In this document: positions 6,734 through 56,623 of the stretch, piece after piece
How positions within the stretch are numbered: the stretch's first letter is position 1
How the letters are laid out: each line of letters begins with the position of its first letter
Source of the DNA: an uncultured Candidatus Saccharibacteria bacterium
Lineage (GTDB): Bacteria; Patescibacteriota; Saccharimonadia; Saccharimonadales; Saccharimonadaceae
NCBI GenBank assembly: GCA_964480265.1
Contig: CAYZNY010000006.1
Span: forward strand, 1,219 to 65,218
Direction of reading: 5' to 3'
Length of the DNA stretch: 64,000 nt
Notes under the pieces: model-generated
Seen by the model: only the letters and a program-made list of their open reading frames with translations
Told to the model about the DNA's origin: nothing
Database searches by the model: none
Translations under genes and position numbers: made by a program

Positions 6734-7501
6734 TTAGTCTCCCTCATGTAATTTAATATCTGCATCCTCTTCCAATTGTCGGTATTTTTCTGCCATCTCT
6801 GCGTCGCCTAAGGCAATGTAGGATGACTTAATAGCGGCATACACCAAGCTCTGCTCTTTTGAGCTAAGCGCATTAAAATCAAGTTGCTGAGATACATCTA
6901 TTACTTCGTCATACTCGCTATGTTGAAACAGGGTGATTAGCTCTGCTGCCTGGATGGCGTTCCTCTGCTTCTGGTCATTACTCGCCGATACTGCGTTCTC
7001 TGTTGCCGCCCTAACGCTGCCTATACCTTGCGCTCCAGAATTTTCTCCCGCCGATGCCTCATTATCTATTCCCGAAATTGACCGCAACTGAGTTAAATAT
7101 TTTTCAACAGCACTATTATCCCCATCGCTATCCCCCTCATAACTATTGCCAAGAGTTAATTCCGTTGGTTTTTTCTCATGATCTTTCGGCGATACTAGCA
7201 TCATAATCATCCATATGGTAGCCCCCATAATTGCAATGGTCAACACGCCCAAAACAATCCAAAACCACAATGGCCGCTTCGTTCTTACTCTTGAACCATT
7301 TTGAGGGAATTGTTTTGTCTTTTTAGCCTCTTTATCTTTTTTGTCTTTAACTTTCTTGACTTTTTCTGATTTGTGTTTTTTGCCCGAGCCAATCTTGCTA
7401 GCATCAAAACCAGCGTTTATAGCCGAAGTAGGCTTCACCGGTTGCACCGGGGCCTGATTCTGCACCTGCGGTGCAGTTGCACCCTTTCCCTCCTCGTTCA
7501 T
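6734..7501 (-). CDS. bitopic membrane protein: K-rich disordered N-terminus, one TM helix, helical/TPR-like C-terminal domain
   Basis: The TM segment is LWFWIVLGVLTIAIMGATIWMIMMLV. The C-terminus is similar by eye to 13039..13731. It is the first gene of its operon, with TGcTATAAT 7 nt upstream of the ATG (leaderless-type). Confidence 0.7.
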   Translation of the reverse strand: MNEEGKGATAPQVQNQAPVQPVKPTSAINAGFDASKIGSGKKHKSEKVKKVKDKKDKEAKKTKQFPQNGSRVRTKRPLWFWIVLGVLTIAIMGATIWMIMMLVSPKDHEKKPTELTLGNSYEGDSDGDNSAVEKYLTQLRSISGIDNEASAGENSGAQGIGSVRAATENAVSASNDQKQRNAIQAAELITLFQHSEYDEVIDVSQQLDFNALSSKEQSLVYAAIKSSYIALGDAEMAEKYRQLEEDADIKLHEGD

Positions 7502-7612
7502 GCTTATGATTATAGCATACTTTAACTCATTTTTATAATTTCACAAAGAATTGGCTCGCATTTCTGCGAGCCGTTACTTAAGGTGCTTTATTATGGGGGG
7601 ACATTTAAGTCA

Positions 7613-8806
7613 TCACCATTCCGATTTGGGAATATTTAACTTATAGACTATAATCTCATTGCCCATAGATACTCCATCAAATGTTTCATAGACCGCTTTT
7701 CTGCGTTCAATTAAACTAAATTGTTGCAACTGTTGTGTTTTCTTGATTTTCTTGATTGGCTTGACCTTTTTGTAAGGGCGACGATAAATTACATCCCTAT
7801 CCCAAACAAAAAAACCGACGTAATCATTATACGGTTCAAGTGCCCCATTCTCCAAGATTGCATAGCGTATGCCACCACTACGTGTCCTAACTTTAATCCT
7901 TGCTACTTCGCTCACTGCTCCCGAACCCTTCAAATGATCAAACTCACCAATGTTAAAGGCGGCGCATATTTTACATATTGCTATGGCATAGTCTAAGCAA
8001 TCACCATATGCTTTCTTTTTGAATAATGCCTTAAACGATTCATTCTCATCATTCCTTGAATCGGAGTGCCGCATTGACGCCCCCTCCCAGCTTTTACCGT
8101 CTGACCCTATTTCCAGCACTATTCTCGCCTTCATAGCACTTGATAAATTCCGGAATTTTGTTCCATGAAGGTACTTGCTCAATTCTTTCAAATTAGCAAT
8201 TGTCGTTTGCGTATCCAAGTATAGCTGTGCCCTGCTTTTATAATTAGCTTCATCCACCATAACCGTTCCAGACTGTAAGCCAGCGGCTAGATTTTCCGAT
8301 TCCTTCAATAGCTTGTCAATATACGCTCTAAACCCTTTGTATTCTTGTTCTACAAATTTAATGCCATAAATATACTCCTGGCAATGGAATTTCTTGACTA
8401 TGAATGTTGTATATTTCCCATTCTTCTTAGGATTATTATTCGTTCCATTCACATCAAAGTAAAGCGAATCTTTCATGCATATCGGAAACACATCAAACCC
8501 CACATCAGTCTGCTTAGCAACTTTCTTAGTCAGCTTCTGAAACTTCTTATAGAAGCTTTTCTCGCCGCCCTTGAACCGGATCGTAAAAGCTTTACCTTTC
8601 AAAAGCTGCTGATGAACCTTTTTGGCGGTCTTCTGATCAATCTTTTTGACCGTTATAACCTTGGCTTTCGCCTTTGCCTCCACCTCTGTCTGCTGGCAAA
8701 CTACGCTGCCTACCAAAATAAGTCCAAAGGTTAACAGTAATCCAGCCGCCATTGTTAATATGGGGCCAAGAAACAACTTGCTACAAAAATCATTTTTCAC
8801 CTTCAT
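7613..8806 (-). CDS. membrane-anchored transglutaminase-like cysteine peptidase domain protein
   Basis: There is an N-terminal signal anchor. The motif AYGDCLDYAIA fits the G-x-C-x-x-(F/Y)-A nucleophile context of transglutaminase-like proteins. GGAGGG lies upstream of the ATG. The gene sits in a visibly AT-rich segment. Confidence 0.5.
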   Translation of the reverse strand: MKVKNDFCSKLFLGPILTMAAGLLLTFGLILVGSVVCQQTEVEAKAKAKVITVKKIDQKTAKKVHQQLLKGKAFTIRFKGGEKSFYKKFQKLTKKVAKQTDVGFDVFPICMKDSLYFDVNGTNNNPKKNGKYTTFIVKKFHCQEYIYGIKFVEQEYKGFRAYIDKLLKESENLAAGLQSGTVMVDEANYKSRAQLYLDTQTTIANLKELSKYLHGTKFRNLSSAMKARIVLEIGSDGKSWEGASMRHSDSRNDENESFKALFKKKAYGDCLDYAIAICKICAAFNIGEFDHLKGSGAVSEVARIKVRTRSGGIRYAILENGALEPYNDYVGFFVWDRDVIYRRPYKKVKPIKKIKKTQQLQQFSLIERRKAVYETFDGVSMGNEIIVYKLNIPKSEW

Positions 8807-8889
8807 GATAATCCCTCCTGTCTGTAAAGGTACCTAAAATGCAAACGAGCAACAGAAAAATTATTGCCCATACTAATTGTTACCGCACA

Positions 8890-8918
8890 ATTGTACTATT
8901 TCTGAGTGAAAAATGCAA
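8890..8918 (-). promoter_or_regulatory. sigma70-type promoter for 7613..8806
   Basis: On the minus strand: TTGCAT, 17 nt, TACAAT. Confidence 0.55.
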
Positions 8919-8966
8919 AGTTAAGCGAGATGAGATATAGGTCATAGAGAAAAATTGAGAAGATCG

Positions 8967-8995
8967 ATAGTTGAGGGGCGAAGCCCCTCAACTAT
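8967..8995 (-). terminator. 13-bp perfect hairpin overlapping the stop codon of cassette a
   Basis: ATAGTTGAGGGGC-gaa-GCCCCTCAACTAT on the plus strand. It lies between cassette a and the promoter of the next gene. Confidence 0.5.
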
Positions 8996-9279
8996 TTCGC
9001 AACACAGCGGACGGCAAAACCTTGGCCGCGGATAGAGTAGGACTGTGAATCGACGTAGACACCATTGGAAAAGGAAAAGAATAAGAGATTGTTTGCAGAT
9101 TCAGATGAATATGCCGAGTGTGACCAGTAGTACCCTTCTGAGCCTAGTGCGCTTAATGATCCGATATTGTAATAATACTTACCTCCTAACTCAAACCCGA
9201 GCGGCGCGCTACGTAACTGGGTAGAACCGGAGAAGAAGTTAGAAATGTTGTAGTGCGCCGCTCGAAAAACATATCCCGT
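8992..9279 (-). pseudogene. cassette a: start-less C-terminal half of a Fibrobacter-succinogenes-major-paralogous-domain (FISUMP, lectin-like) protein
   Basis: The open frame between stops reads TGYVFRAAHYNISNFFSGSTQLRSAPLGFELGGKYYYNIGSLSALGSEGYYWSHSAYSSESANNLLFFSFSNGVYVDSQSYSIRGQGFAVRCVAK*. It contains no ATG, GTG or TTG. The YWS...G(F/L)(A/S)VRCV ending is the hallmark of that domain family. Confidence 0.7.
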
Positions 9280-9285
9280 CTATGC

Positions 9286-9313
9286 TTGTAGTTTTCTCAA
9301 AATTTGCTATATG
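9286..9313 (+). promoter_or_regulatory. candidate promoter of ncRNA unit 1
   Basis: TTGTAG, 16 nt, TGcTATATG. The predicted start is about 3-4 nt before the closing stem of the RNA. Confidence 0.45.
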
Positions 9314-9319
9314 CTGGAA

Positions 9320-9593
9320 GATAGGACGACAGAGCGCCATGCTACACCGCTCTACGAGAAACTTTAACAGCGGGGAGAAAGGAAGGAGTATGGGGCTCAC
9401 ACTAACCATACGCGTATGGAAATTACGCATAAAAATTAGTTTAGGCAAAGCCCAAACTAATAAAACCCTATCTATATCCTAGCACGCTAATCGCAGACGG
9501 TCAACACCATGTGGGCCGATAATCTACGATTATCGGCCCATCTGCGAAGTGAAACAATGCTAGTGGTGTAATAGCTCTGTCGTCCAGTTTTTT
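9320..9593 (+). ncRNA. unclassified structured ncRNA, unit 1 (about 262-nt core at 9324-9585)
   Basis: The 5' GGACGACAGAGC pairs with the 3' GCTCTGTCGTCC, and a T6 run follows. Internal hairpins include a perfect 12-bp stem, GGGCCGATAATC/GATTATCGGCCC. It is paralogous to unit 2, with compensatory changes between the two. Confidence 0.55.
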
Positions 9594-9600
9594 GATTTAC

Positions 9601-9807
9601 CCTCTCAACTTTCTCCGTACGGGGCACTACTATCGTGCAAATGGTAATATTAATGCTCGTACTCATCATGCTAATTGGTGGTCCGATACAAATATATCTG
9701 CATTTAGTGCATACAACTTGAATACCCGACCAGAGTCTATTGGAAATCAAAGTAGTAGCAACCGTGGTTACGGTTTTGCCATCCGCTGTGTAGTACGGGA
9801 GGGGTGA
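9601..9807 (+). pseudogene. cassette b: start-less FISUMP-like C-terminal fragment (second subfamily)
   Basis: PLNFLRTGHYYRANGNINARTHHANWWSDTNISAFSAYNLNTRPESIGNQSSSNRGYGFAIRCVVREG*. It lies between the 3' ends of the two ncRNA units. The only upstream in-frame start is a TTG inside the RNA terminator, with no RBS. Confidence 0.65.
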
Positions 9808-9840
9808 AATTCGTAGGAAACGGATGAAGAAAATCAGATT

Positions 9841-10106
9841 AAAAATCATGGAACGACAGAGCTACTACATCGTCGGCATCACCTCAACTTCGCGAGGAGT
9901 CTGACCGAAGGTCTTGACTCCTCGCGATCAGCATGCTAGGATGTAAATAGGTTGTTGATTGGTTTAGGCTTTGCCTAAACCAATTTTTACGCTAAGACAT
10001 AGCTTGCCTAGGCGCAGGGTAAGCTGAGCTTCCATTCCTATCTCTCCTTTCTCCCCGCTGTTAAAGTTTCTCGTAGAGCGTGTAGCATGGATGCTCTGTC
10101 GTCCTG
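9841..10106 (-). ncRNA. unclassified structured ncRNA, unit 2 (about 254-nt core at 10104-9851), paralogue of unit 1
   Basis: On the minus strand GGACGACAGAGC...GCTCTGTCGTTC closes the unit and is followed by a T-run. The first 65 nt or so are nearly identical to unit 1. The internal hairpin CGCGAGGAGTC...GACTCCTCGCG replaces the unit 1 hairpin at the same position. Confidence 0.55.
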
Positions 10107-10112
10107 ATCATC

Positions 10113-10141
10113 ATTATACCTCGTGCACCGACACAAAACAA
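10113..10141 (-). promoter_or_regulatory. candidate promoter of ncRNA unit 2
   Basis: On the minus strand: TTGTTT, 17 nt, TATAAT. The -10 ends 8 nt before the closing stem. Confidence 0.5.
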
Positions 10142-10322
10142 CCATATTTTTGCACTTTTCGCCCTTGTTGTAGCAAGGATAGTATCGGTCCCCCTCCCTA
10201 TCATATAGCAAATTTAGATGAAAGTACAAGCGTAAGCATGAAACTTCACAACTTTACGTTTAAAATGGTCAAAAATCTTGATTTTAAACGCAAAGACCAA
10301 TGCGCTTTGGCTACTCAGCCAC

Positions 10323-11318
10323 CTACGTCCCCGCCGTGCGCGCCGCAAAATTAAACTTATTGATACCACAATAGGTGAATTCTGACCCGACAGTTAGCAG
10401 CTCGCCGTTATCTTCGGTATAATCTTGTACATCACAATAATCACCCGAGCGCTCGATGTTCACATTACCCCGGTCCGTACCCAGGATAAATGTACCGGTC
10501 ATGAAGGTGCGCAGCGTCACTGCATCCTGCGAAATCGGAAAGATCGTCAACTCATAAAGCTGCAAATTGACATCCGACGCCGTGAGTAGTCCCTCGGTCG
10601 GGTCCGGGATGCGATTTGCACTACCATTAGCAAGCTGTGTAATGTCAACTTCAAGCGTGCCACCCCCGTCGACTTCCATCATATTCTTTCTATAACCTTC
10701 GTCTGGGCTGACCAACGCTGAACAAACTCGATAAGTCGGATCATAAACCTGTGCCAACCGAAACTTCCCCGACGACGGATCTTCTGGCAGATTCCCCTCC
10801 GAGCCATCGGATTTTAGATATTTGAGCGCTATTGCCACTTTCTTGTTTGCCGTATGCTCCAAACCATAGTATGTATTCCAAATATAAGAATAGTTGCCCG
10901 TGCAAAATACTCCACCCAGTTGCACGTTGTGATTTTCTTTTTCTGCCCGCCTAGTATTGTCAGAATAAGTACCGGTGCGCTCTTGGAAAATAAACTTATT
11001 CGCAAAATCAGCTTTACATTCATCAATCGCCGCCGCTGCCGCGGTCGAGCTGGCCTTAAAATAACTATTACAGAGACTAGTCGTATCGACCGATGGCGCC
11101 GCATTGATATTCGCCGTGAACTCGTCAATCAACCCGCGGCCAGTACTATTGACGGATTTTAGCGTCAGCCCCTTTTGATAAATTTGCGTCACCATACCGG
11201 CTACCACCGTAATCGAAATCAGCAAAGTCGCGATAAACGCTGTCGCTAGCGAAAACTCTACAATCGTAAAACCTTGCAAACTTTGCTCCATCAAAGGTTT
11301 TTTCTTTTTTCTAAGCAT
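10323..11318 (-). CDS. type IV pilin-like protein (pseudopilin/minor pilin)
   Basis: It has a prepilin-type N-terminal cleavage/methylation motif, SLQG|FTIVEFSLATAFIATLLISITVV. It overlaps the upstream gene by 8 nt. Confidence 0.8.
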   Translation of the reverse strand: MLRKKKKPLMEQSLQGFTIVEFSLATAFIATLLISITVVAGMVTQIYQKGLTLKSVNSTGRGLIDEFTANINAAPSVDTTSLCNSYFKASSTAAAAAIDECKADFANKFIFQERTGTYSDNTRRAEKENHNVQLGGVFCTGNYSYIWNTYYGLEHTANKKVAIALKYLKSDGSEGNLPEDPSSGKFRLAQVYDPTYRVCSALVSPDEGYRKNMMEVDGGGTLEVDITQLANGSANRIPDPTEGLLTASDVNLQLYELTIFPISQDAVTLRTFMTGTFILGTDRGNVNIERSGDYCDVQDYTEDNGELLTVGSEFTYCGINKFNFAARTAGT

Positions 11319-12174
11319 CTTTTGCCTCCGGATTATAAAGTCGAATTACCGAGTCGATCGAGGTAGGCGCATTGCTATTCGACCCAAACCAACACGTCTG
11401 AATATAAAAATCATAAAAATCATATTTGGTGTGAGTAGAATCATACTTTCCACCCACGGCAACTACCCAAATCCCCTCGGCATATTTGAGATAATCAAAC
11501 AATTGGGAAGACGATAGGTTATTCACCGAATTATTATCTTCGCCACTGCTAGCGTCTTTGGTATAAATCAACCTCGCTCCGAGCGTTGGCTCGCGAAATG
11601 CCTCCGGGTGCTCGCTGATCGAGATATAGACATTTTCGGAAAGTTCGTTTTTATTGGTGCTCGCATTCAGCTTGTCCTTGCCGATTTTGCGTGTATTCAG
11701 GACGAATGCCCTGTTTTTGGTCAATAAGTTAGAACCGGCTGGCTCATAATAATCCTTACAACTTCCCAAAATCCCCTCCGGCATACTAAAATCGTCGCTC
11801 ATGGCAGCGCCTTCCGTCCGCGGGGCCATGGCATTTTCTGCAATTTTTTTCCAAAGCGAAGCAAACTGCTGGCATTTCTCACCCGGATTATTTTTAACCT
11901 CTTGTGAATCGCAAGTCGGTAAAGTCAATTCCGAGACATACGAGCTATGAATGAAACGTAGCGCCTCAGCCTGGCCGTTCAGCTCGTTTCTGGCGGTGAC
12001 CAGTTCGAGCGAGCGTTCGCCGCTTGATACACCAGCATTCATCATTGAAATCGATATCACCGCTACCATCGAGAAAACCGCAATCGCGAACATTACCTCG
12101 ATCAGCGTATCGCCACGCTTAGCCCCAGAATTCTGAACCACCCGCCCGAGGATATTTTGCCATTTTTTACTCAT
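11311..12174 (-). CDS. type IV pilin-like protein (variant prepilin signal)
   Basis: KRG|DTLIEVMFAIAVFSMVAVISI is a class III signal-like motif with a conserved Glu at +5. It overlaps the upstream gene by 8 nt. Confidence 0.7.
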   Translation of the reverse strand: MSKKWQNILGRVVQNSGAKRGDTLIEVMFAIAVFSMVAVISISMMNAGVSSGERSLELVTARNELNGQAEALRFIHSSYVSELTLPTCDSQEVKNNPGEKCQQFASLWKKIAENAMAPRTEGAAMSDDFSMPEGILGSCKDYYEPAGSNLLTKNRAFVLNTRKIGKDKLNASTNKNELSENVYISISEHPEAFREPTLGARLIYTKDASSGEDNNSVNNLSSSQLFDYLKYAEGIWVVAVGGKYDSTHTKYDFYDFYIQTCWFGSNSNAPTSIDSVIRLYNPEAKDA

Positions 12175-24124: not shown

Positions 24125-24381
24125 ACTGACGCACCCCCTTCCTTGTTCATGTGAATGTGATCGTTTTGTTTTTTATAATCACTACCAGGGGGTACCAACC
24201 CCCAGTAGGAGTTGGCGAACCAACTACCAACCAGCCAATCCGGCTGATCGTTAGACACGATATATATCAACAGATACAACCTCGCAGTTACCATTATGGC
24301 AACGGTATTGTATCTGAGATGATTCGATTGTTAAGTGGACCTCTGGCCGGGCCGCTCCCGTAGCTCTTCCAGACTGCTTCC

Positions 24382-24410
24382 ATTGTAGCACACATCGTCA
24401 AAAAAGTCAA
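24382..24410 (-). promoter_or_regulatory. consensus sigma70 promoter for 22139..24124
   Basis: On the minus strand: TTGACT, 17 nt, TACAAT. It leaves a leader of about 250 nt. Confidence 0.65.
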
Positions 24411-24672
24411 TAGTTTTTCTATATTTTAGGCATAAAAACAATAGAAATAAGCGTTATAGGTATAAAACAGAGGTGAAAAAGCCGCGCCCTAGCATTTTGA
24501 AATGCTTATGTATAGGGGTGATATAAACTTGACCGTTATAACAGTAAAATGCTTTTGCTAAAAACTTTGTCGATTTCTTGTCAAGAACATGACATTTTGG
24601 GCATGAAAAAGGCCCACCCGATATCCAGGTAAGCCTTCCCAACGTGCTAAGGTGTCAAATTTCGTGGTTTCA

Positions 24673-25899: not shown

Positions 25900-25996
25900 A
25901 GAAACACCTTCCTTTCTGTAAATGTGCCACCCCCTGTGGGGCGGCATTTGGTTTTCGTTGATTGACACCTGCCGCCCAAAATGGGCCTCTGCTTCC

Positions 25997-26025
25997 ATTG
26001 TATCACAGATTACCAAAAATGTCAA
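25997..26025 (-). promoter_or_regulatory. consensus sigma70 promoter for 24673..25899
   Basis: On the minus strand: TTGACA, 17 nt, TACAAT. Confidence 0.65.
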
Positions 26026-26098
26026 TAGTGTAAAATGTATCTTGATTACCTTGCAAGAATATTACAATACCAAATCAAAACTGTTTTCATACGAATAG

Positions 26099-26407
26099 TT
26101 ATATAAAGGCTGGACCTTACCTTCCTCCGCCGATTATGCGAATCTTATCACCACTACCTACAATATCCCTAACTCCTCCTCCGGTTCTACCCAGCTACGT
26201 AGCGCGCCGCTCGGGTTTGAGTATACGGGTAGTTATGTGTATTTCAGCGGTTCATTAACTCAGATCGATATAGCTGGTAGATATTGGTCTCGTTCAATAC
26301 ATTCTGATAGCGAAGCTTACAATCTAATCTTTGAGTCTGCTGATGTTTCTCCACGGTCCTATTATCGTCGTGGAGATGGTTTTGCCGTCCGCTGTGTTGC
26401 GAGATAG
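26099..26407 (+). pseudogene. cassette c: start-less FISUMP-like fragment (longest copy, begins at the GW.LP core)
   Basis: The open frame after a TAG stop reads LYKGWTLPSSADYANLITTTYNIPNSSSGSTQLRSAPLGFEYTGSYVYFSGSLTQIDIAGRYWSRSIHSDSEAYNLIFESADVSPRSYYRRGDGFAVRCVAR*. There is no usable start codon and no RBS. Confidence 0.7.
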
Positions 26408-26484: not shown

Positions 26485-26577
26485 GGAGGGTTACCCAAGT
26501 GGCTGAAGGGGACGGTTTGCTAAATCGTTAGTCTGGGGAGACCTGGAGCGGGAGTTCGAATCTCCCACCCTCCGCCA
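26485..26577 (+). tRNA. tRNA-Ser(GCT), class II, CCA encoded
   Basis: GGAGGGTTACCCAAGTGGCTGAAGGGGACGGTTTGCTAAATCGT + long variable arm + GCGGGAGTTCGAATCTCCCACCCTCCGCCA. Confidence 0.9.
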
Positions 26578-26611: not shown

Positions 26612-26842
26612 GATGGTTCTACCCAGTTACGTGGCGCGCCGCTCGGGTTTGAGTATACTGGCATTTATAACTACGATGGCTCAGTGAGTACTGTCGCCTA
26701 CGGGTACTATTGGTCGCGCTCGGCAAGATCAGATATAGCTACCTATAACTTCTACTTTGGGTCTAGTTTTGTAAATCCGCAGAGTAGTTACTTCCGTGGT
26801 AACGGTTTTGCCGTCCGCTGTGGGGTGGAACGTAAGGAATAA
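26612..26842 (+). pseudogene. cassette d: start-less FISUMP-like fragment that begins exactly at the conserved head
   Basis: DGSTQLRGAPLGFEYTGIYNYDGSVSTVAYGYYWSRSARSDIATYNFYFGSSFVNPQSSYFRGNGFAVRCGVERKE*. The listed TTG start lies inside the tRNA terminator. Confidence 0.65.
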
Positions 26843-26949
26843 CCAAGTTCGCTTTGAACATTGAAAGACACCACCGAGGCCTGCCCGTGACCGAGCTTTG
26901 GTGTAGCGTCAGGGTATGTTCAAAAAGAACTATCCTATCCCCTATTCCT

Positions 26950-27182
26950 TCACCCCTCCCATACTACACAGCGGATGGCAAAACCGTGTCCGCAGTAATC
27001 GTTACCCTGAGGGTCGACATTCGTCAGGTTCGTATGCAGGTAGCGACCGTACGCAGCCGAATAGCTAGCATCCGACCACCAGAGGCCACCTACGGTACGA
27101 TTGAAGATGTAGCCATTGGAACGACCGTAGAGGCCCGTACGGAGAAAGTTGAGAGCGGCGCGCTACGTAGCTGGATAGAACC
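26950..27182 (-). pseudogene. cassette e: FISUMP-like fragment with head and body in different frames
   Basis: The body reads LNFLRTGLYGRSNGYIFNRTVGGLWWSDASYSAAYGRYLHTNLTNVDPQGNDYCGHGFAIRCVVWEG*. The head (GSIQLRSAP) is joined to it out of frame, because the junction is 2 nt longer than in a, c and d. Confidence 0.65.
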
Positions 27183-32548: not shown

Positions 32549-34231
32549 ATGGACGGCATTAGAAAAAAGGCCTATGGTTACAGACGCGTTTCTACCGTAG
32601 GGCAAGTAGACGGAGCTTCTCTGGGAACACAGACAGAGAAAATAACAAGTTATGCAGAAGCAAACAATATCGAAATCGTGGATTGGTTTGAGGATCCAGG
32701 TTATTCAGCGAAAGATGCTAATAGGCCAGACCTTCAAAGAATGCTTGAGTCAATCAAGAAACACAAGGGTGAAGTTGACTTCGTTATCATTCACGACAGC
32801 ACACGGTTATCCAGAAACCTAGCTTCTTTTTATGTCGATATTTGGCCCACGCTGCACAAGAACGGTGTACGGCTCTTATCAGCAACAGAGAATTACGGCG
32901 ACGAAAAAGACCCGACTGGCGACATTCCAATGATTTTCGGTGTTCTTACTGGTCAAATTGACAATAAGAATAAATCTAATTCTACTAAAAATAATATGGA
33001 TGACCTTTTTAGCAACAGTGGCTGGTGGATGGGTGGCAGAACGCCACTAGGATATAGGATTGAACGCATATTCGTTGAAGGAAGGCAGCGCGATGGTCAT
33101 CAGAAGTCCCACGCCATACTGGTGCCAGACAACACCAATGGTCTTGCAGATAAAATTGCTTTTTTGCTTAACCGTTTTTCCGAGGGTGATTTGTTATCAT
33201 CGGATCTACTTCAAATCGCCCATAAAATAGATATCCGCGGCTTCAAAGGTGAACTGCTCGCGCAAAGCACTCTAGATGGCATCTTAACAAACGAAATCTA
33301 TGCTGGATATCATACATCAAAAACGATGGCCAACCAGCAAAGGGTTAAAATGAGGTTCGGAGGCATAATATCGTTAGAGACATACGAGAAAAATCAAAGA
33401 ATTATAAATAAAAATGGCAAACCCCACGAAAAGAGTAATGAATTGGAATATCCACTCAGCAAAACTGCTTGTTGCGCTATTTGTGGCGCAATGATGACCG
33501 ACGAGGAAAGAGAAGTAAAAACCACAAAAGGCAAGCTTCCATACCTTCGTTATAGCGCACCAAAAAGTGGTTCCGGCAAGCACACTCCACGCTATAGTTG
33601 TAAATGTAGAGGACACGGATCTATTCGTGCTTCCGATGCCCATCAGATTTTTGAATGCTATCTCAAGCAAATTACGCCAACCAAAGAAATGGTAAAGTTA
33701 TTCAAAGAGATTGTGAGACGCACGGCCCTCAAAAAACTCGGCAATACCAATAAACAAATTAGCGAGCTTGAAGCAAAAAGTAAAGAGATTCGGAATGATA
33801 AAGAAAATGCTCTTAAGAAGCTTTTAAAGAACGATATGGGGCTCGACGACGGTGAACAGCGAGAGCTAATGGGGTCATATGATGCCGATCGTAGTAGGAT
33901 TGAGTCTGAACTCGCAGATCTGAAGCAAATCCAGTTATTGAGAGAAGCCGACATTGAGTATGTCTGCAACTTTATGAGTATGCCAGCTAAACTTTGGCGA
34001 GATGGCGATTTAGAGACTAAGCAAGCTATTCAAAAGATGATTTTTCCAAATGGCATATATTTTGACCTCAAGAATAAAAAGTGTGGAACCAACGAAATTA
34101 GCCCTCTGTTCTCTGTTACAGACATCAAAAAAGCACCTTCTGGTGCAGATTTGAATGCTCTGGGGTGGGATATCGGAATTGAACCGACGACCTTCTGGAC
34201 CACAATCAGACGCTCTAACCAACTGAGCTAA
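32549..34231 (+). CDS. large serine recombinase (resolvase-type catalytic domain + recombinase domain + zinc ribbon + coiled coil)
   Basis: The N-terminus is YGYRRVSTVGQVDGASLGTQ...DPGYSAKDANRPDLQRML...FVIIHDSTRLSRN, with the catalytic Ser in RVST. Cys clusters are CCAICG...YSCKCRGH. The last 35 codons or so are antisense to the tRNA-His terminator and tRNA-His. Confidence 0.85.
   Translation: MDGIRKKAYGYRRVSTVGQVDGASLGTQTEKITSYAEANNIEIVDWFEDPGYSAKDANRPDLQRMLESIKKHKGEVDFVIIHDSTRLSRNLASFYVDIWPTLHKNGVRLLSATENYGDEKDPTGDIPMIFGVLTGQIDNKNKSNSTKNNMDDLFSNSGWWMGGRTPLGYRIERIFVEGRQRDGHQKSHAILVPDNTNGLADKIAFLLNRFSEGDLLSSDLLQIAHKIDIRGFKGELLAQSTLDGILTNEIYAGYHTSKTMANQQRVKMRFGGIISLETYEKNQRIINKNGKPHEKSNELEYPLSKTACCAICGAMMTDEEREVKTTKGKLPYLRYSAPKSGSGKHTPRYSCKCRGHGSIRASDAHQIFECYLKQITPTKEMVKLFKEIVRRTALKKLGNTNKQISELEAKSKEIRNDKENALKKLLKNDMGLDDGEQRELMGSYDADRSRIESELADLKQIQLLREADIEYVCNFMSMPAKLWRDGDLETKQAIQKMIFPNGIYFDLKNKKCGTNEISPLFSVTDIKKAPSGADLNALGWDIGIEPTTFWTTIRRSNQLS
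34127..34146 (-). terminator. intrinsic terminator of tRNA-His, inside the recombinase ORF
   Basis: On the minus strand: GCACC-agaa-GGTGC followed by T6, 15 nt after the tRNA CCA end. Confidence 0.55.
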
Positions 34232-37056: not shown

Positions 37057-37173
37057 ACAAATTCCCCCTTTTTTTATATTTTTTGAGAAAATTTGCTGCA
37101 AACTTTTAATTTACCTAAGGCCCTACGCCTTAGGTATCGAGCCCGCAGCGTAATTTATTAGCCTTATGCTTTC

Positions 37174-37202
37174 ATTGTAGCATAGATTGGCAAAAAAGTC
37201 AA
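37174..37202 (-). promoter_or_regulatory. consensus sigma70 promoter for 36643..37056
   Basis: On the minus strand: TTGACT, 17 nt, TACAAT. Confidence 0.6.
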
Positions 37203-37223
37203 TAGTTTAAGCATATTTTATGG

Positions 37224-37252: not shown

Positions 37253-37481
37253 AATCAGTATAGGCTAGTTTAGTCTGGTATCTTAATAACAAGTTGACAA
37301 ATGCAATTTTTATGTTTGTCTTTGACATATCCTAACCTAGGTAGCTATAAAAGAACCTATACGGTTGTTTTATAGCTGCCTAGGCAGTCGCGTCACTGCG
37401 TAGACAAAGTTCTACTGCAATATGGGGTAGACCCTCGGCATTGGCGTGCTGGTTACGACCAGATATAGAAAGGAGGCCATT

Positions 37482-38906
37482 ATGGCTAAGACAAACAAAA
37501 CTGAAACCCGTAGACCCAGCACCGAAGAAGTAAAGGAGACGACAAAAACGGTAATGAACAAACTGACCACCGAGACTCGACTCCTTGAAACCGTATTTTC
37601 GGCATCAGGCGAAGAAAGCTTGTTGAAAGCAATCGAGCATGCTCGCGAAACGATGCCAGCTCATGAAGAAATGGAGGCGGATAACATTGTGGACTTGTTC
37701 TCCAAGCTTGGGCGTAATTTTACGCCGATGGAGGAGGTGACAGTCGGTGATCTGACATCTTTGGGGCGTAAATATGCCCAGAAGTTCATTTGCGGTACGG
37801 TATTTGCTTCCGTGCAAGATCATGGTCACTATTTCTCCTGGAAATCCACGGAGAAATATGCTCCAAGCATCATCATGGAGGCAGACAATACTTTACGGCT
37901 CAGATACGGTAAGTTCGGCGATATATCAACGATCGTCAACTACACGGATGCCGACGATGTATTACCACATTTACCATTTGATCCTGCAGGCAACGATTTC
38001 GATTGTGTTATTGCCTGGGGCATTGCAAGCGAAAAAGACGGCGATTGGCGTTTTAGGGCTAAACCGTTATCTGACGCAACCGATTTACTCCTGGCTGTAC
38101 CATGGGGTGGAGCGCACAGCAATACCAATGGTAGAAAAAGGGACGAACTATTCTTCAAGCATAATCCAGAAATTAGGTTCTTTGAAAAGCAATCCTCAAA
38201 ATCTGGTGGTGAAGGTATTGATTATTACGTCATAAAACTCATACCAGGAGATTTGCAGGATGCAGTTGCTGTCACCGAGGCACGCCTGATGGATGAGGAT
38301 CACGAGGCAGAGCTCTACTTCTATGCTAAGTATCTGCAAATCAAAGTACTAAAACAGATGTGCGATGATATAGAAGAGAAAATGCAGGAAGAGATCAAAG
38401 AGCTTGAATGTCTTTATGGTGATATTGATGATCAGGTCGAAGCCCTATGCAAAAAGTATAAGGATGCACATATTTTCAGTGCACCAAAACGAGAGTCTAT
38501 ACCGAATGGGATCTCTCGCGAATACAGCTATAAGATGTCGATCGGCGAGCTAACAAGCTATGCTGAAAAGCAACTTCTCGATGCGGAAGTCGAATTCGTG
38601 CGAGCTCTGGAAAAAAATAAGTTGATGGCACGGTCGTATGCGAATCTGGTACCAAAATACGCACAGTTGGCTTCATGCGTATATAACAAGTGTCGTGGCA
38701 GAATGGAAATACTGAGCGATGGAGTGATTTTGTGCTTACCAAGCACCGAAGAAGGAGGTCACAAATTCGTTAAGCATTCATTTGGCTTTACGGAGTCGCA
38801 GCTCGGGCTGTGCATAGAGTTAATTTACAACTTTATCGACACAGAAAAAAACAACGCCGAAGGAAACGCCAAATTACTTAAACAACTCTGCGAAAATAAG
38901 AAGTAA
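37482..38906 (+). CDS. hypothetical cytoplasmic protein (474 aa)
   Basis: The start was moved to MAKTNK because AAGGAGG lies 6 nt upstream. No motif was recognised. Confidence 0.7.
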   Translation: MAKTNKTETRRPSTEEVKETTKTVMNKLTTETRLLETVFSASGEESLLKAIEHARETMPAHEEMEADNIVDLFSKLGRNFTPMEEVTVGDLTSLGRKYAQKFICGTVFASVQDHGHYFSWKSTEKYAPSIIMEADNTLRLRYGKFGDISTIVNYTDADDVLPHLPFDPAGNDFDCVIAWGIASEKDGDWRFRAKPLSDATDLLLAVPWGGAHSNTNGRKRDELFFKHNPEIRFFEKQSSKSGGEGIDYYVIKLIPGDLQDAVAVTEARLMDEDHEAELYFYAKYLQIKVLKQMCDDIEEKMQEEIKELECLYGDIDDQVEALCKKYKDAHIFSAPKRESIPNGISREYSYKMSIGELTSYAEKQLLDAEVEFVRALEKNKLMARSYANLVPKYAQLASCVYNKCRGRMEILSDGVILCLPSTEEGGHKFVKHSFGFTESQLGLCIELIYNFIDTEKNNAEGNAKLLKQLCENKK

Positions 38907-45511: not shown

Positions 45512-45524
45512 AATCTATCTCTCT

Positions 45525-45553
45525 ATTGTATCACAGATAGCTGATTTTGTCAA
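45525..45553 (-). promoter_or_regulatory. consensus sigma70 promoter for 44714..45511
   Basis: On the minus strand: TTGACA, 17 nt, TACAAT. It overlaps the 3' end of the upstream gene. Confidence 0.6.
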
Positions 45554-46709
45554 TACCGTTTTGCTGAGCAAAAGCACGATTCTCGTCAATCACCTTTTGA
45601 TATTTCAATGCAAGATCTTCTCTGTCCTCCATTTTTGCGACCTCAATCGCCAAATCATAGCGCGAGGCCTGGTTCAGGCTCAGCATTTCAAACGGTGTAG
45701 TTGTGCTGCCCTGCTCATTATATCCATGGATATGCAGCCTCTTACCATCGGTATATTCGGCCAAAATCGACTTCAAAGCACCGGCATAGCCATGGAAATT
45801 GCCAATAATCGGAACTTTCTTTGAGAATAGTTCGTCGAACTTCTTCTGGCTAAGTGTCTTGCCGACTAAGCCGATTTTACCATAACTGAGAGCACAAATA
45901 TTCACAAAACGGAATTTCTTATCTGGCAAATCTCCCCGCAAAATCTCGATTGCGCGAATCGCCTCGCCCGAGACAATATCCCCCGCTCCGATCAAAACAT
46001 AATCTGGCTCGCCATCATCAGAAATAAAATCTAGTACACCCGCACCACCATCGTGCAACATCTGATCGGCCTGATGCGAATCGATCCAACGTGGTAAATC
46101 AATCTTGTTGAAAGTATTAAGATTTACTACGTCCTGCGATTTCAGCATATAAATCATACTCGCCTCAGCTGCAACATCGTCAATCGGGAAAAGACAATTG
46201 GCTAGACCACTGGGATTACCAAGCAGCATCGAGACTAGCTCTGGCGATTGGTGAGTGAAACCATTATGATCCTGCCGCCAACAAGTACTGGTCGAGAGCA
46301 AATTGATTGCTGGAATCGGCTCGCGCCAGGCTACTGATTTTGATTGTTTGATAAATTTTAGCTCTTGCATCACCTGCGAGCCAATAATCGTGAAGAACGA
46401 CTCGTAGCTAGTCATTGCGGCTGGCTCACCATTCATAAGGTGCCCAACCATACAGGCGAATAGCGCATTCTCAGAAAGCATTTCCACGATATGCCCATTT
46501 GGTGACTCGGGCAAATCCCAGGCCTCCTTTGGTAAATCCCACAGGCGGCTACTAACCTCATAAACCACGTCAAGCTTGTTGCTGGTAGTTTCGTCGGGCG
46601 AGAATAAATAGAAGTCGTCGTGATGCAACATATAGCTCGCCAAGACGGCACCAATCTTCTTGGCCGGAGAGAATAGATCCTTGCCAGGGTTTTTGACTTG
46701 ATCAATCAT
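45531..46709 (-). CDS. xfp: phosphoketolase, C-terminal two-thirds (separate ORF)
   Basis: FYLFSPDETTSNKL matches the FR.FGPDE..SNRL block, and the remainder resembles the XFP middle and C-terminal domains. The start ATG overlaps the stop of the N-terminal ORF (ATGA). Confidence 0.8.
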   Translation of the reverse strand: MIDQVKNPGKDLFSPAKKIGAVLASYMLHHDDFYLFSPDETTSNKLDVVYEVSSRLWDLPKEAWDLPESPNGHIVEMLSENALFACMVGHLMNGEPAAMTSYESFFTIIGSQVMQELKFIKQSKSVAWREPIPAINLLSTSTCWRQDHNGFTHQSPELVSMLLGNPSGLANCLFPIDDVAAEASMIYMLKSQDVVNLNTFNKIDLPRWIDSHQADQMLHDGGAGVLDFISDDGEPDYVLIGAGDIVSGEAIRAIEILRGDLPDKKFRFVNICALSYGKIGLVGKTLSQKKFDELFSKKVPIIGNFHGYAGALKSILAEYTDGKRLHIHGYNEQGSTTTPFEMLSLNQASRYDLAIEVAKMEDREDLALKYQKVIDENRAFAQQNGIDKISYL

Positions 46710-47809
46710 TGCAAAAATCCTTTCTTGGCATCAAATAGCTCGTTAAACTCATAGCTTTTCAGCCAGCTGCTTAGCATTTTTAGCTGCTCGGGGTCGGTCT
46801 TTGCCTCCGGAAGCGGAATTTGATGGGCAAGATAATTCCCCGCTACTTTTTTACCATCAAGCTCTTTCGGGCCAGTTTCGCCTTTCTCGCTTCTGAAAAT
46901 AATAAACGGATGCTCAATCCTAGCCGACTCGCGCAAAGCAGCCTGGAAAACATCCGGCGCATCACCCTCAACCCACAGCGGCGTATATCCAAAACCACGC
47001 ACAAGCTCTGAAAGCTCACGCCTAGACTTGCGGCCATAAACCGTTGGACCGGAGATCTTGTATCCATTCAGATGTAGGATCGGCAAGACCAAACCATGAT
47101 AATGCTGATCCCCCACTAGCTTAATAAGATTTAATGACGCCAGTGCAGTGGCGGTTTCTAGCTCGCCATCTCCTAACATAACGGCAATGGTTTGCTCCGG
47201 GTGACCAAGCGCAAGCCCATAAGCTGCCCCCAGTGCATAACCGAGCTCGCCACCCTCACAAACTACACCCGGCGTAATCGGGCTAGCATGTGACGGGAAC
47301 CCCCCTGGCCAAGAAAAATTATGACAAATATAAGCCAAGCCATCCGCATCACGTGTCGCCTTGGGATCGACGGTTTCTAAATCTCCGTCATAAAACAAAT
47401 TTGCCTGCAAAGCTGGAAAACCGTGGCCCGGCCCAAGGATAAACCGAAAATTCTCACAGACTTCGTTTTTGATAGACTTTCTCGGTAGACGGTCTCGAAT
47501 AGCAATTGCCTGCTCGGTCGCAACCTTGGTTTTGGACCGCCCTGCCGCCCGCAGCACCGCCTCTCGGTCGCTATCGCTGGCAGTCGCCCCTTGACCCTCC
47601 GGGCAAAAATAAGCTCGCAAATTTGCATAAGCAACGTTGATCCCGTGACAAGTCCCCCAGTGGCCAAGCAGGCGCGGCTTGATATCCTCCGCCGATAGAG
47701 GTTTTTCAAGCAAAAAATTATTTTGCAAAAAAAGTTGCGCCACCGCGAGATAATCGCACGCCCGCACGCGCCGTTGAATCTCCTCATTACCTCCATGGTG
47801 ACCATTCAT
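46706..47809 (-). CDS. xfp: phosphoketolase, N-terminal thiamine-diphosphate-binding part (separate ORF)
   Basis: It has LLGHWGT and the XFP signatures EGGELGY and GDGELETA. Relative to my memory of canonical enzymes, there is an insert after GHWGT. TGcTATAAT lies 7 nt upstream of the ATG. Confidence 0.8.
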   Translation of the reverse strand: MNGHHGGNEEIQRRVRACDYLAVAQLFLQNNFLLEKPLSAEDIKPRLLGHWGTCHGINVAYANLRAYFCPEGQGATASDSDREAVLRAAGRSKTKVATEQAIAIRDRLPRKSIKNEVCENFRFILGPGHGFPALQANLFYDGDLETVDPKATRDADGLAYICHNFSWPGGFPSHASPITPGVVCEGGELGYALGAAYGLALGHPEQTIAVMLGDGELETATALASLNLIKLVGDQHYHGLVLPILHLNGYKISGPTVYGRKSRRELSELVRGFGYTPLWVEGDAPDVFQAALRESARIEHPFIIFRSEKGETGPKELDGKKVAGNYLAHQIPLPEAKTDPEQLKMLSSWLKSYEFNELFDAKKGFLQ

Positions 47810-47867
47810 ACTTATGATTATAGCATAGTTTTCCTCCGTTTTACCTTAATTATGATACAATAAGCTT

Positions 47868-56495: not shown

Positions 56496-56579
56496 ATCTC
56501 ATCGCCCCCTTTTCTACTTTTATGACAATTTTAAGCATTACAATACTAGACTGTCGCCGTACGACAGCCTTATCTCTCC

Positions 56580-56608
56580 ATTGTAGCACACATTGCTAAT
56601 TTTGTCAA
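56580..56608 (-). promoter_or_regulatory. consensus sigma70 promoter for the radical-SAM gene
   Basis: On the minus strand: TTGACA, 17 nt, TACAAT. Confidence 0.6.
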
Positions 56609-56623
56609 GTATAGTACCAGATT

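Follow-up and report, generated by a model that had tools for sequence, protein, structure and literature searches.

Two convergent self-folding units around a lectin-type cassette in Candidatus Saccharibacteria: candidate RNA genes with sense/antisense features

What are the two closely similar units of about 260 nt that face each other across a gene fragment lacking an ATG in the genome of an uncultured Candidatus Saccharibacteria bacterium? The window, meaning the whole stretch of 64,000 nt that was analysed (contig CAYZNY010000006.1 of assembly GCA_964480265.1, positions 1,219 to 65,218 of the forward strand), carries them, here designated unit A and unit B, on either side of a lectin-type fragment termed cassette b. 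A sequence-only reading had described the two as convergent paralogous structured RNAs, each preceded by its own promoter and without a match to the signatures of several known RNA classes. The pair is a real feature and not a product of chance. Its members are probably independent RNA genes that fold on themselves, are driven by promoters, and were duplicated in inverted orientation; within that reading, it may tentatively be suggested that they form a sense/antisense module organised like a type I toxin-antitoxin system.

Paralogy, folding and orphan status of the units

The elements concerned are listed below; R1 is a covariance model built from units A and B themselves, and the bit scores are accordingly their own.

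9324-9585, forward strand: unit A, 262 nt, starting GGACGACAGAGC and ending GCTCTGTCGTCC; 312 bits against model R1
10104-9851, reverse strand: unit B, 254 nt, starting GGACGACAGAGC and ending GCTCTGTCGTTC; 307 bits against model R1
9324-9335 with 9574-9585, forward strand: closing helix of unit A, 12 bp
10104-10093 with 9862-9851, reverse strand: closing helix of unit B, 12 bp including one G-U pair
9586-9594, forward strand: T-run AGTTTTTTG directly 3' of the unit A closing helix, a possible termination point
9843-9824, reverse strand: T-runs downstream of the unit B closing helix, the 3' flank of which reads CATGATTTTTAATCTGATTTTC
9602-9808, forward strand: cassette b, without ATG (TTG only), encoding the last ~68 residues of a Fib_succ_major-type lectin-like domain

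Re-reading of positions 8800-10700 confirmed the coordinates and sequences of both units. Their mean column identity in a MAFFT alignment is 82%; a 36-nt 5' block, CGCTCTACGAGAAACTTTAACAGCGGGGAGAAAGGA (inverted repeat I6), is fully identical in the two, and the later blocks said to be common to the pair, namely TAAAAATT, GTTTAGGCAAAGCC, ATCCTAGCA, and GCGAAGT, are all present in the alignment. Outside the 5' block, the divergence is about 25%. The units constitute a large inverted repeat around cassette b, towards which the 3' ends and T-runs of both are directed. They exist as two adjacent copies only, and neither a third unit nor a further occurrence of the 36-nt block (up to three mismatches allowed) was found in the window. 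A weak echo of the cassette head (GCTAC..CCGCTC), formerly noted within the units, is too faint to serve as evidence. The surroundings resemble a mobile element, with a type IV secretion system (T4SS)-type neighbourhood, a large serine recombinase, and tRNA genes.

The minimum free energies of units A and B were computed as -106.8 and -109.4 kcal/mol, respectively, against averages of -63.7 and -68.9 kcal/mol for dinucleotide shuffles (z = -8.9 and -8.6); none of the 200 shuffles was as stable. The consensus fold comprises 61 pairs, every one of which (61/61) is intact in both copies, six having changed on both sides and five on one, while partners slid by one to three columns as a control paired in only 31-43% of cells; the covariation is that between two paralogues alone. 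The claimed paralogy with conserved intramolecular pairing is hence upheld. The pairing of the 5' 12-mer with the 3' 12-mer, with a T-run behind it, was recovered in both units as a 12-bp helix; the terminator scan, which needs a small loop, was unable to flag the T-run after the closing helix of unit A. At a matching internal site, unit A folds into UCGCAG/CUGCGA plus a 14-bp helix, GUGGGCCGAUAAUC/GAUUAUCGGCCCAU, and unit B into a different 12-bp helix, UCGCGAGGAGUC/GACUCCUCGCGA, in agreement with the unrelated but perfectly paired hairpins reported there. The presence of distinct yet perfectly paired hairpins at one site points to selection on folding within each unit rather than on pairing between the units. 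The GTTTAGGC hairpin likewise varies in the way described, keeping or restoring its pairing: an A-C mismatch in unit A is a perfect pair in unit B, and a flanking A-U pair becomes G-C.

The overall interpretation given in the sequence-only reading thus holds for the paralogy, the pairing, the lack of a known family, and the plausibility of the promoters, and is weakened by the opposite strand, which folds equally well. The reverse strands have z-scores of -7.4 and -7.1, and the reverse-strand consensus fold reaches -65.8 versus -61.2 kcal/mol with eight pairs changed on both sides. Because the reverse strands fold equally well, the fold cannot tell which strand matters; assignment of the strand from thermodynamics or covariation was attempted and failed, both strands scoring alike.

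Only five tRNAs were retrieved from the whole window by Rfam 15 at gathering score, and the same number, with no tmRNA, by ARAGORN. Rfam at E<=10 over positions 8900-10500 gave chance-level matches far under the gathering scores, and nothing was obtained on the related loci. The failure to match RNase P, tmRNA, 6S, signal recognition particle RNA, or group I/II introns is therefore upheld by Rfam and, for tmRNA, by ARAGORN, and the Rfam scan formerly proposed as a check yielded no family for either unit. In the viral collection, an exact 25-mer gave 0 matches and an exact 16-mer gave 41, among which nhmmer detected no real similarity to the units (best E 3.6 and 7.8). The 20-mer ACGAGAAACTTTAACAGCGG was found 0 times in metagenome contigs and 0 times in genome contigs, the promoter-leader pattern discussed in the next section was found 0 times in metagenome and 0 times in viral contigs, blastn of the units against phages and plasmids returned nothing, and the translated unit frames used as protein queries gave no candidates. 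Related loci (L042-L064) were recruited via homologues of the translated cassette b together with homologues of a neighbouring 397-aa protein; these relatives sat in NCBI, ENA, and Logan assemblies and were reached through proteins. A third unit copy was absent from L042-L059 and L061-L064 by nhmmer and from 13 loci by model R1. The search with a covariance model, which had also been proposed, accordingly gave no homologue in the loci searched, and the covariation is confined to the two paralogues (the six both-sided changes). As judged by sequence, the units are orphans, with neither a known RNA family nor a homologue in the searched collections.

Guide-like matches between the units and the rest of the window (11-mers) were at chance level, and when the 5' block was hybridised in silico to the window, its best energies did not surpass those of shuffled blocks, with no significant complementarity elsewhere. 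A separate observation concerns the 15-nt sequence GATGCCGACGATGTA, which occurs exactly at nt 225-239 of unit B (9880-9866, reverse strand) and at 37947-37961 (forward strand) inside an open reading frame (ORF) at 37446-38906; the two are in the same sense, and ~0.03 such matches would be expected by chance.

Predicted promoters, candidate short ORF and antisense features

The promoters and internal features of the units are as follows.

9281-9315, forward strand: promoter P1 of unit A, TTGTAG, 16-18 nt spacer, TGCTATATGCT; predicted start ~9322-9324; read from the sequence
10105-10141, reverse strand: promoter P2 of unit B, TTGTTT (10141-10136), 17 nt, TATAAT (10118-10113)
10142-10244, reverse strand: second copy of P1 with a ~50-nt leader, AGGGAGGGGGACCGATACTATCCTTGCTACAACAAGGGCGAAAAGTG, upstream of P2
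9390-9482, forward strand: candidate short ORF of unit A, 30 codons, MGLTLTIRVWKLRIKISLGKAQTNKTLSIS, behind the tract GGGGAGAAAGGAAGGAG; frame and stop of ORF 9282-9482
9964-10035, reverse strand: candidate short ORF of unit B, its start and frame matching the unit A ORF; 23 codons, MEAQLTLRLGKLCLSVKIGLGKA
9504-9476, reverse strand: antisense promoter-like site of unit A, TTGACC, 17 nt, TGcTAGGAT; flagged by scan
9461-9435, reverse strand: antisense terminator-like hairpin with T-run of unit A, 14 nt past the promoter-like site
9914-9942, forward strand: antisense promoter-like site of unit B, TTGACT, 17 nt, TGcTAGGAT; flagged by scan
9958-9988, forward strand: antisense hairpin ATTGGTTTAGGC-TTT-GCCTAAACCAAT with T-run of unit B, 14-15 nt downstream; read from the sequence

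Each unit had been credited with a promoter of its own that would start transcription just before the closing stem. The placement is plausible and the module to which the promoters belong is conserved in two other loci, transcription itself being a prediction. P1 of unit A was missed by the consensus promoter scan on account of its weak -35 box, and pairs with 10202-10234 as inverted repeat I9 (85%). P2 is predicted to start transcription 7-8 nt downstream, on the opening base of the unit B closing helix. From these repeats, the second unit copy is read as the outcome of an inverted segmental duplication that took in P1, and the duplication of P1 along with the unit counts for an RNA gene on the sense strand.

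The second P1 copy, its leader, and P2 form a module that recurs in L043 and L059, two unrelated metagenome contigs from another sample, with 84% identity over 143 nt (L043 902-1043) and ~90% identity over ~86 nt (L059 997-1083). Across the three loci, the leader follows the pattern AG[G/A]GAGGGGGACCGATACTA..CTTGCTA.AACAAGGG.AAAAAGTG (~84-90% conserved), which has no Rfam match. The L043 equivalent of P2 is TTGATT-17-TATACT, followed by GGAGC...; its predicted start opens the hairpin GGAGC-AACAAG-GCTCC and a short adenine-rich cassette-like segment comes next. In L059, the predicted start opens a mini-hairpin, GGACGAA-16 nt-TTCGTCC, which equals the outer half of the units' closing helix. In all three loci (3/3), a cassette of the group designated family II has its 3' end no more than 50-400 nt from the P1-leader module. 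Because the module is conserved in L043 and L059 with a GGA... hairpin at the start site, the units would be transcribed in the sense direction originally proposed. They may represent an expanded form of the module's 5' hairpin, or L059 may hold a collapsed one. The conserved module provides the strongest outside support for an RNA gene, and it is the sole link of these RNAs to the cassette loci. A peptide encoded in the P1 leader was considered and rejected, as most differences among the three loci fall on second codon positions and its ATG coincides in part with the -10 box.

As RNA genes, the units would each be self-contained and give an RNA of ~255-262 nt, which would start at the first base of the 12-bp 5'-3' helix and probably end at the T-run just past the closing helix. 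If they are of the sense/antisense kind, this long RNA would be a closed, translationally silent small mRNA in which a pyrimidine tract further downstream pairs with the Shine-Dalgarno-like tract, and its ORF of 23-30 codons would encode a cationic amphipathic peptide. A cis-antisense RNA of ~40 nt, transcribed from a promoter inside the unit as far as a terminator hairpin of its own, would overlap the 3' part of the ORF. On that view, the position of the units around cassette b would be incidental, or would stabilise the locus.

The short ORF behind a Shine-Dalgarno-like tract and the internal antisense promoter-like and terminator-like sites of both units had been overlooked in the sequence-only reading, and with them a purely non-coding structured RNA becomes only one of several readings. 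The tract that precedes the ORF, GGGGAGAAAGGA, is conserved in both units, and a 6-nt indel within the ORF leaves the frame intact. A hand count over codons 5-23 gave 11 substitutions, distributed over codon positions 1/2/3 as 7/0/4; these features weakly suggest that the ORF is coding. The predicted peptides are cationic, and hydrophobic residues alternate in them with polar ones. In the predicted minimum-energy fold of unit A, the purine tract pairs with CCU/UCU/UCC and the AUG lies within a 6-bp stem, and in that of unit B, the tract pairs with CCUAUUU...UCCU, such that the start codon is in or beside a stem in both. The combination of 5'-3' pairing and a sequestered ribosome-binding tract, characteristic of inert mRNAs, is thus predicted for both units. 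On the other strand, the antisense hairpin comprises 12 bp, the unit B copy being homologous to the terminator flagged in unit A, and the A-C mismatch of the unit A hairpin is a G-U pair in the antisense sense of reading. The layout of the antisense promoters equals that of a repeated motif of the genome, TTGACT-17-TGCTACAAT (family D1). This motif was observed independently of the units as five 34-nt copies (24379-24412, 25994-26027, 37171-37204, 45522-45555, and 56577-56610) that read so on the opposite strand, and it is apparently the organism's standard strong promoter.

Type I toxin-antitoxin modules are typically carried on mobile elements and duplicate locally, and the traits of hok/sok (plasmid R1) and aapA1/IsoA1 (Helicobacter pylori) offer one of the closest comparisons. 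As in those systems, the unit RNA would be ~250 nt long with paired ends and a ribosome-binding tract sequestered in the predicted folds, it would carry an ORF of 20-30 codons for a cationic peptide, a short candidate cis-antisense RNA would have its own promoter, and the module is duplicated on a mobile-element-like region. Unlike them, the units show no sequence similarity to either system, their antisense RNA would be only ~40 nt in length, and it would overlap the 3' end of the ORF instead of the leader. A literature search found no paper pairing type I toxin-antitoxin systems with Patescibacteria, Saccharibacteria, or the Candidate Phyla Radiation.

Several points weigh against a sense/antisense module and, in part, against an RNA gene of any kind. 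Most type I toxins have a hydrophobic transmembrane stretch, such as befits a membrane toxin; the unit peptides, which are ~52% identical, have none, and neither is matched by any NCBIfam model. Codons 2-4 of the short ORF differ by a +1/-1 shift, and once they are included, non-synonymous change is about equal to synonymous change over the whole ORF. The predicted antisense RNA is shorter than any antitoxin RNA known to us, the perfectly conserved 36-nt 5' block is given no role, and a multi-branched 'hairpin' of 250 nt would be an unusual intrinsic terminator. Finally, nhmmer and model R1 were empty over ~196 kb of related loci, as were the exact-pattern scans.

Cassettes, related loci and competing explanations

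Four further fragments akin to cassette b were found in the window.

8994-9236, reverse strand: cassette a, Fib_succ_major-type C-terminal fragment without ATG
26183-26407, forward strand: cassette c, Fib_succ_major-type C-terminal fragment
26615-26842, forward strand: cassette d, Fib_succ_major-type C-terminal fragment
26949-27182, reverse strand: cassette e, Fib_succ_major-type C-terminal fragment

Cassettes a-e possess common heads (GGTTCTACCCAGCTACGTAGCGCGCCGCTC) or tails (GGTTTTGCCNTCCGCTGTG) and diverged middles. Since the head and body of cassette e are in different frames, the head is probably a DNA-level site rather than a coding one. Cassettes of family II (LNFLRTG...GFAIRCVVREG) have sharp ends, with 12 of 14 distinct members measuring 192 nt as extracted and the others 189 and 177 nt. 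In assemblies of the Saccharibacteria type and others labelled Lachnospiraceae, such cassettes are present as orphan fragments within mobile-element-like regions that encode a T4SS coupling protein, a relaxase, and recombinases of the serine and tyrosine types; a single secreted protein of 607 aa ends C-terminally in such a cassette. The mobile elements L056 and L058 are 99.9% identical over ~16 kb with the exception of one cassette (11307-11498 in both), which has 55 mismatches in ~160 nt, with sharp boundaries and synonymous changes among the differences. This near-identity except at one cassette indicates active cassette replacement within this family. Neither the stretches of 21 kb and 17 kb examined in L056 and L058 nor, by Pfam, ~130 kb of related loci and the 64-kb window yielded a reverse transcriptase, the window scans for RVT_1 covering 39 of the 54 picked ORFs of at least 80 aa, including almost all of at least 200 aa. 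In addition, a 185-bp segment (L056 9413-9597) is inverted in L058 between the repeats ATGTAACA.../...TGTTACAT, with a gene for a 190-aa tyrosine recombinase 3 kb away; lying upstream of the 397-aa homologue, the segment is likely, from its sequence and arrangement, to be a phase-variable switch.

The explanation that survives best beside that of a sense/antisense module holds that the units are non-coding structured RNAs, emitted by the promoter module, that work with the cassette system. It is regarded as unlikely, though deserving of consideration. In cis, the units could be a terminator or insulator pair silencing cassette b from both sides; alternatively, they could be a scaffold flanking a template-like cassette, of which the four 12-mers could loop the cassette out. 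Flanking stems likewise act in retron and diversity-generating retroelement (DGR) template RNAs. The proposal draws on the proximity of the P1-leader module to a family II cassette 3' end in all three loci, on the L043 promoters that lead straight into an adenine-rich cassette-like segment, on the unit 3' ends and T-runs that face the cassette, and on the conservation of the 5' 65 nt far beyond the needs of a short ORF. It draws also on the template-like composition of cassette b, which is the richest in adenine and Asn among 14 cassettes and whose A sites differ by 60-74%, as against 31-33% at other sites, from those of four among five cassettes in a position-by-position comparison; versus the L043 cassette, the figures are 42% at A sites and 40% elsewhere, and versus its closest relative, cassette e, 33% of the non-A sites differ. 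The cassette differences extend beyond adenines and include synonymous third-position changes, however, and no reverse transcriptase was found in the scans described above. The 5' block also shows no significant complementarity elsewhere in the window, and the cassette loci of the nearest relatives (L050, L061, and L056-58) carry no units, which means that the units are not required for cassettes to exist or be replaced. The notion of an RNA role in cassette biology, formerly offered as speculation, therefore gains from the recurrence of the promoter module beside cassettes and loses from the failure of the units themselves to recur, the link being circumstantial.

Comparison with the two kinds of template RNA leads to a similar balance. 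Like a retron msr-msd RNA, the units are ~250 nt long with a 12-bp stem joining the 5' and 3' ends, a conserved 5' half, and a variable, perfectly paired hairpin in the 3' half; unlike a retron, they have no reverse transcriptase gene that could be found downstream or in the window, and the closing stem is followed by G in unit A and by A in unit B. Like a DGR template RNA, they adjoin a non-coding Asn/adenine-rich sequence that copies the 3' end of a gene for a lectin-type surface protein, with self-pairing sequences flanking the cassette; unlike a DGR, they come without any reverse transcriptase or Avd gene that could be found, without a variable region differing from cassette b solely at adenines, and as two convergent units with their own promoters rather than one transcript. 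A DGR reading of cassette b was rejected on the grounds that no reverse transcriptase was found and that the mismatches are not confined to adenines.

A DNA-level element would likewise account for some of the observations and is considered improbable, if not markedly so. The units might be a 260-bp inverted repeat that inverts the 265-bp cassette b segment, hairpin-forming recombination sites, an element resembling a miniature inverted-repeat transposable element (MITE) with 12-bp terminal inverted repeats, or the single-strand replication origin of a conjugative-type element. The single-strand origins of rolling-circle plasmids have the appearance of a promoter-like site in a folded strand with a nearby stop, which counts for this proposal, as do folds equally good on either strand (as for palindromic DNA), the large inverted repeat surrounding the cassette, the DNA rearrangements of relatives (the 185-bp inversion and cassette swap of L056/L058), and the serine and tyrosine recombinases in these elements. 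Set against it, the arms of an inversion repeat need no self-complementarity and the unrelated hairpins of the two arms cannot cross-pair, the conserved external promoters are predicted to start exactly at the helix, and the nearest recombinase (32549-34231) is ~22 kb off, with none adjacent. With regard to MITEs, such as the Correia elements, the units are similarly short and non-autonomous-looking, with terminal inverted repeats, strong folding, and promoter- and terminator-like motifs. They differ in having no dispersed copies, no parent insertion sequence, and a co-duplicated flanking promoter. The 12-bp repeat is present, but the flanks ..GGAAGATA / AGTTTTTT.. and ..GATGATCA / CATGATTT.. 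share no target-site duplication, and no copy other than the adjacent two was found in the window or, with the patterns used, in the viral, metagenome, genome, phage, and plasmid collections. The mobile MITE envisaged in the sequence-only reading as a case that would overturn its own interpretation is thus not borne out. That the duplication takes in P1, which lies outside the 12-bp repeats, further argues for segmental duplication and not transposition.

The units could also be more or less functionless, representing a lineage-specific expansion of the module's 5' hairpin that was recently duplicated and is decaying neutrally. L059 has just a mini-hairpin, matching the outer stem, at the corresponding place, no homologue exists in the searched collections, and the nearest relatives are without units, all in keeping with such an origin; nevertheless, 61 of 61 pairs have been kept, six with changes on both sides, at ~25% divergence outside the 5' block, and the 36-nt block is still identical, a degree of conservation that neutral decay would not yield, making this explanation quite improbable. 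Least probable of all, and barely to be entertained, is that the units are the RNA scaffold of an undescribed system for rewriting surface-protein cassettes, in which the conserved promoter module would emit structured RNAs bracketing an adenine-rich template-like cassette, the four 12-mer copies would allow alternation between a state in which each unit is closed and one in which the cassette is looped out, and the ~200-bp cassettes in which mobile elements of otherwise identical sequence differ would be replaced with the RNA as template or guide, with a polymerase or recombinase encoded elsewhere or of unrecognised type.

A few further observations on the region may be recorded. A 14-bp inverted repeat, GAGCGGCGC.CTAC ... 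GTAGCG.GCCGCTC, whose loop measures ~27-37 nt, has the head of the a-type cassette as its 3' arm (window 9199-9263, reverse strand); the repeat is conserved in L050 (2050-2110). A tRNA-Ser gene (26485-26577, forward strand) stands between cassettes c and d, and four more tRNA genes are spread across the mobile-element-like region. A conserved promoter, TGCTATAAT...CATGAA, drives a 255-aa gene in the window (7497-7535 and 47805-47843) and is also present in L050 (~1820-1862) and L056 (1365-1396 and 11266-11300); in related elements, a promoter of the TGCTATAAT type and the first ~4-9 codons of the 255-aa gene are fused straight to a family II cassette. Contigs L061-L064, from four independent assemblies, all end ~210 nt upstream of the 397-aa homologue, a common break point which suggests a repeat or variable segment there. 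As for the host, the housekeeping part of the window has 65-71% nucleotide identity to a Candidatus Saccharibacteria assembly, and a phosphoketolase is split into two ORFs at the identical point in the window (45531-47809, reverse strand) and in L045 (628-2786), itself from a Candidatus Saccharibacteria assembly, a pointer to the taxon of the window.

Significance for Saccharibacteria

The units are without a family, yet their architecture resembles known kinds. If expressed, they would represent an orphan class of large structured RNA, or a small closed mRNA together with its antisense RNA, in a group for which, to our knowledge, almost no regulatory RNA has been described. Should they be merely a local addiction module or an expanded hairpin, their interest would be limited. 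The units also mark a locus that stores silent lectin-type cassettes, and in related elements such cassettes have been exchanged among nearly identical copies, the stretches examined there containing no reverse transcriptase. The role of the promoter module and of the RNAs could show how these host-attached bacteria vary a surface protein.

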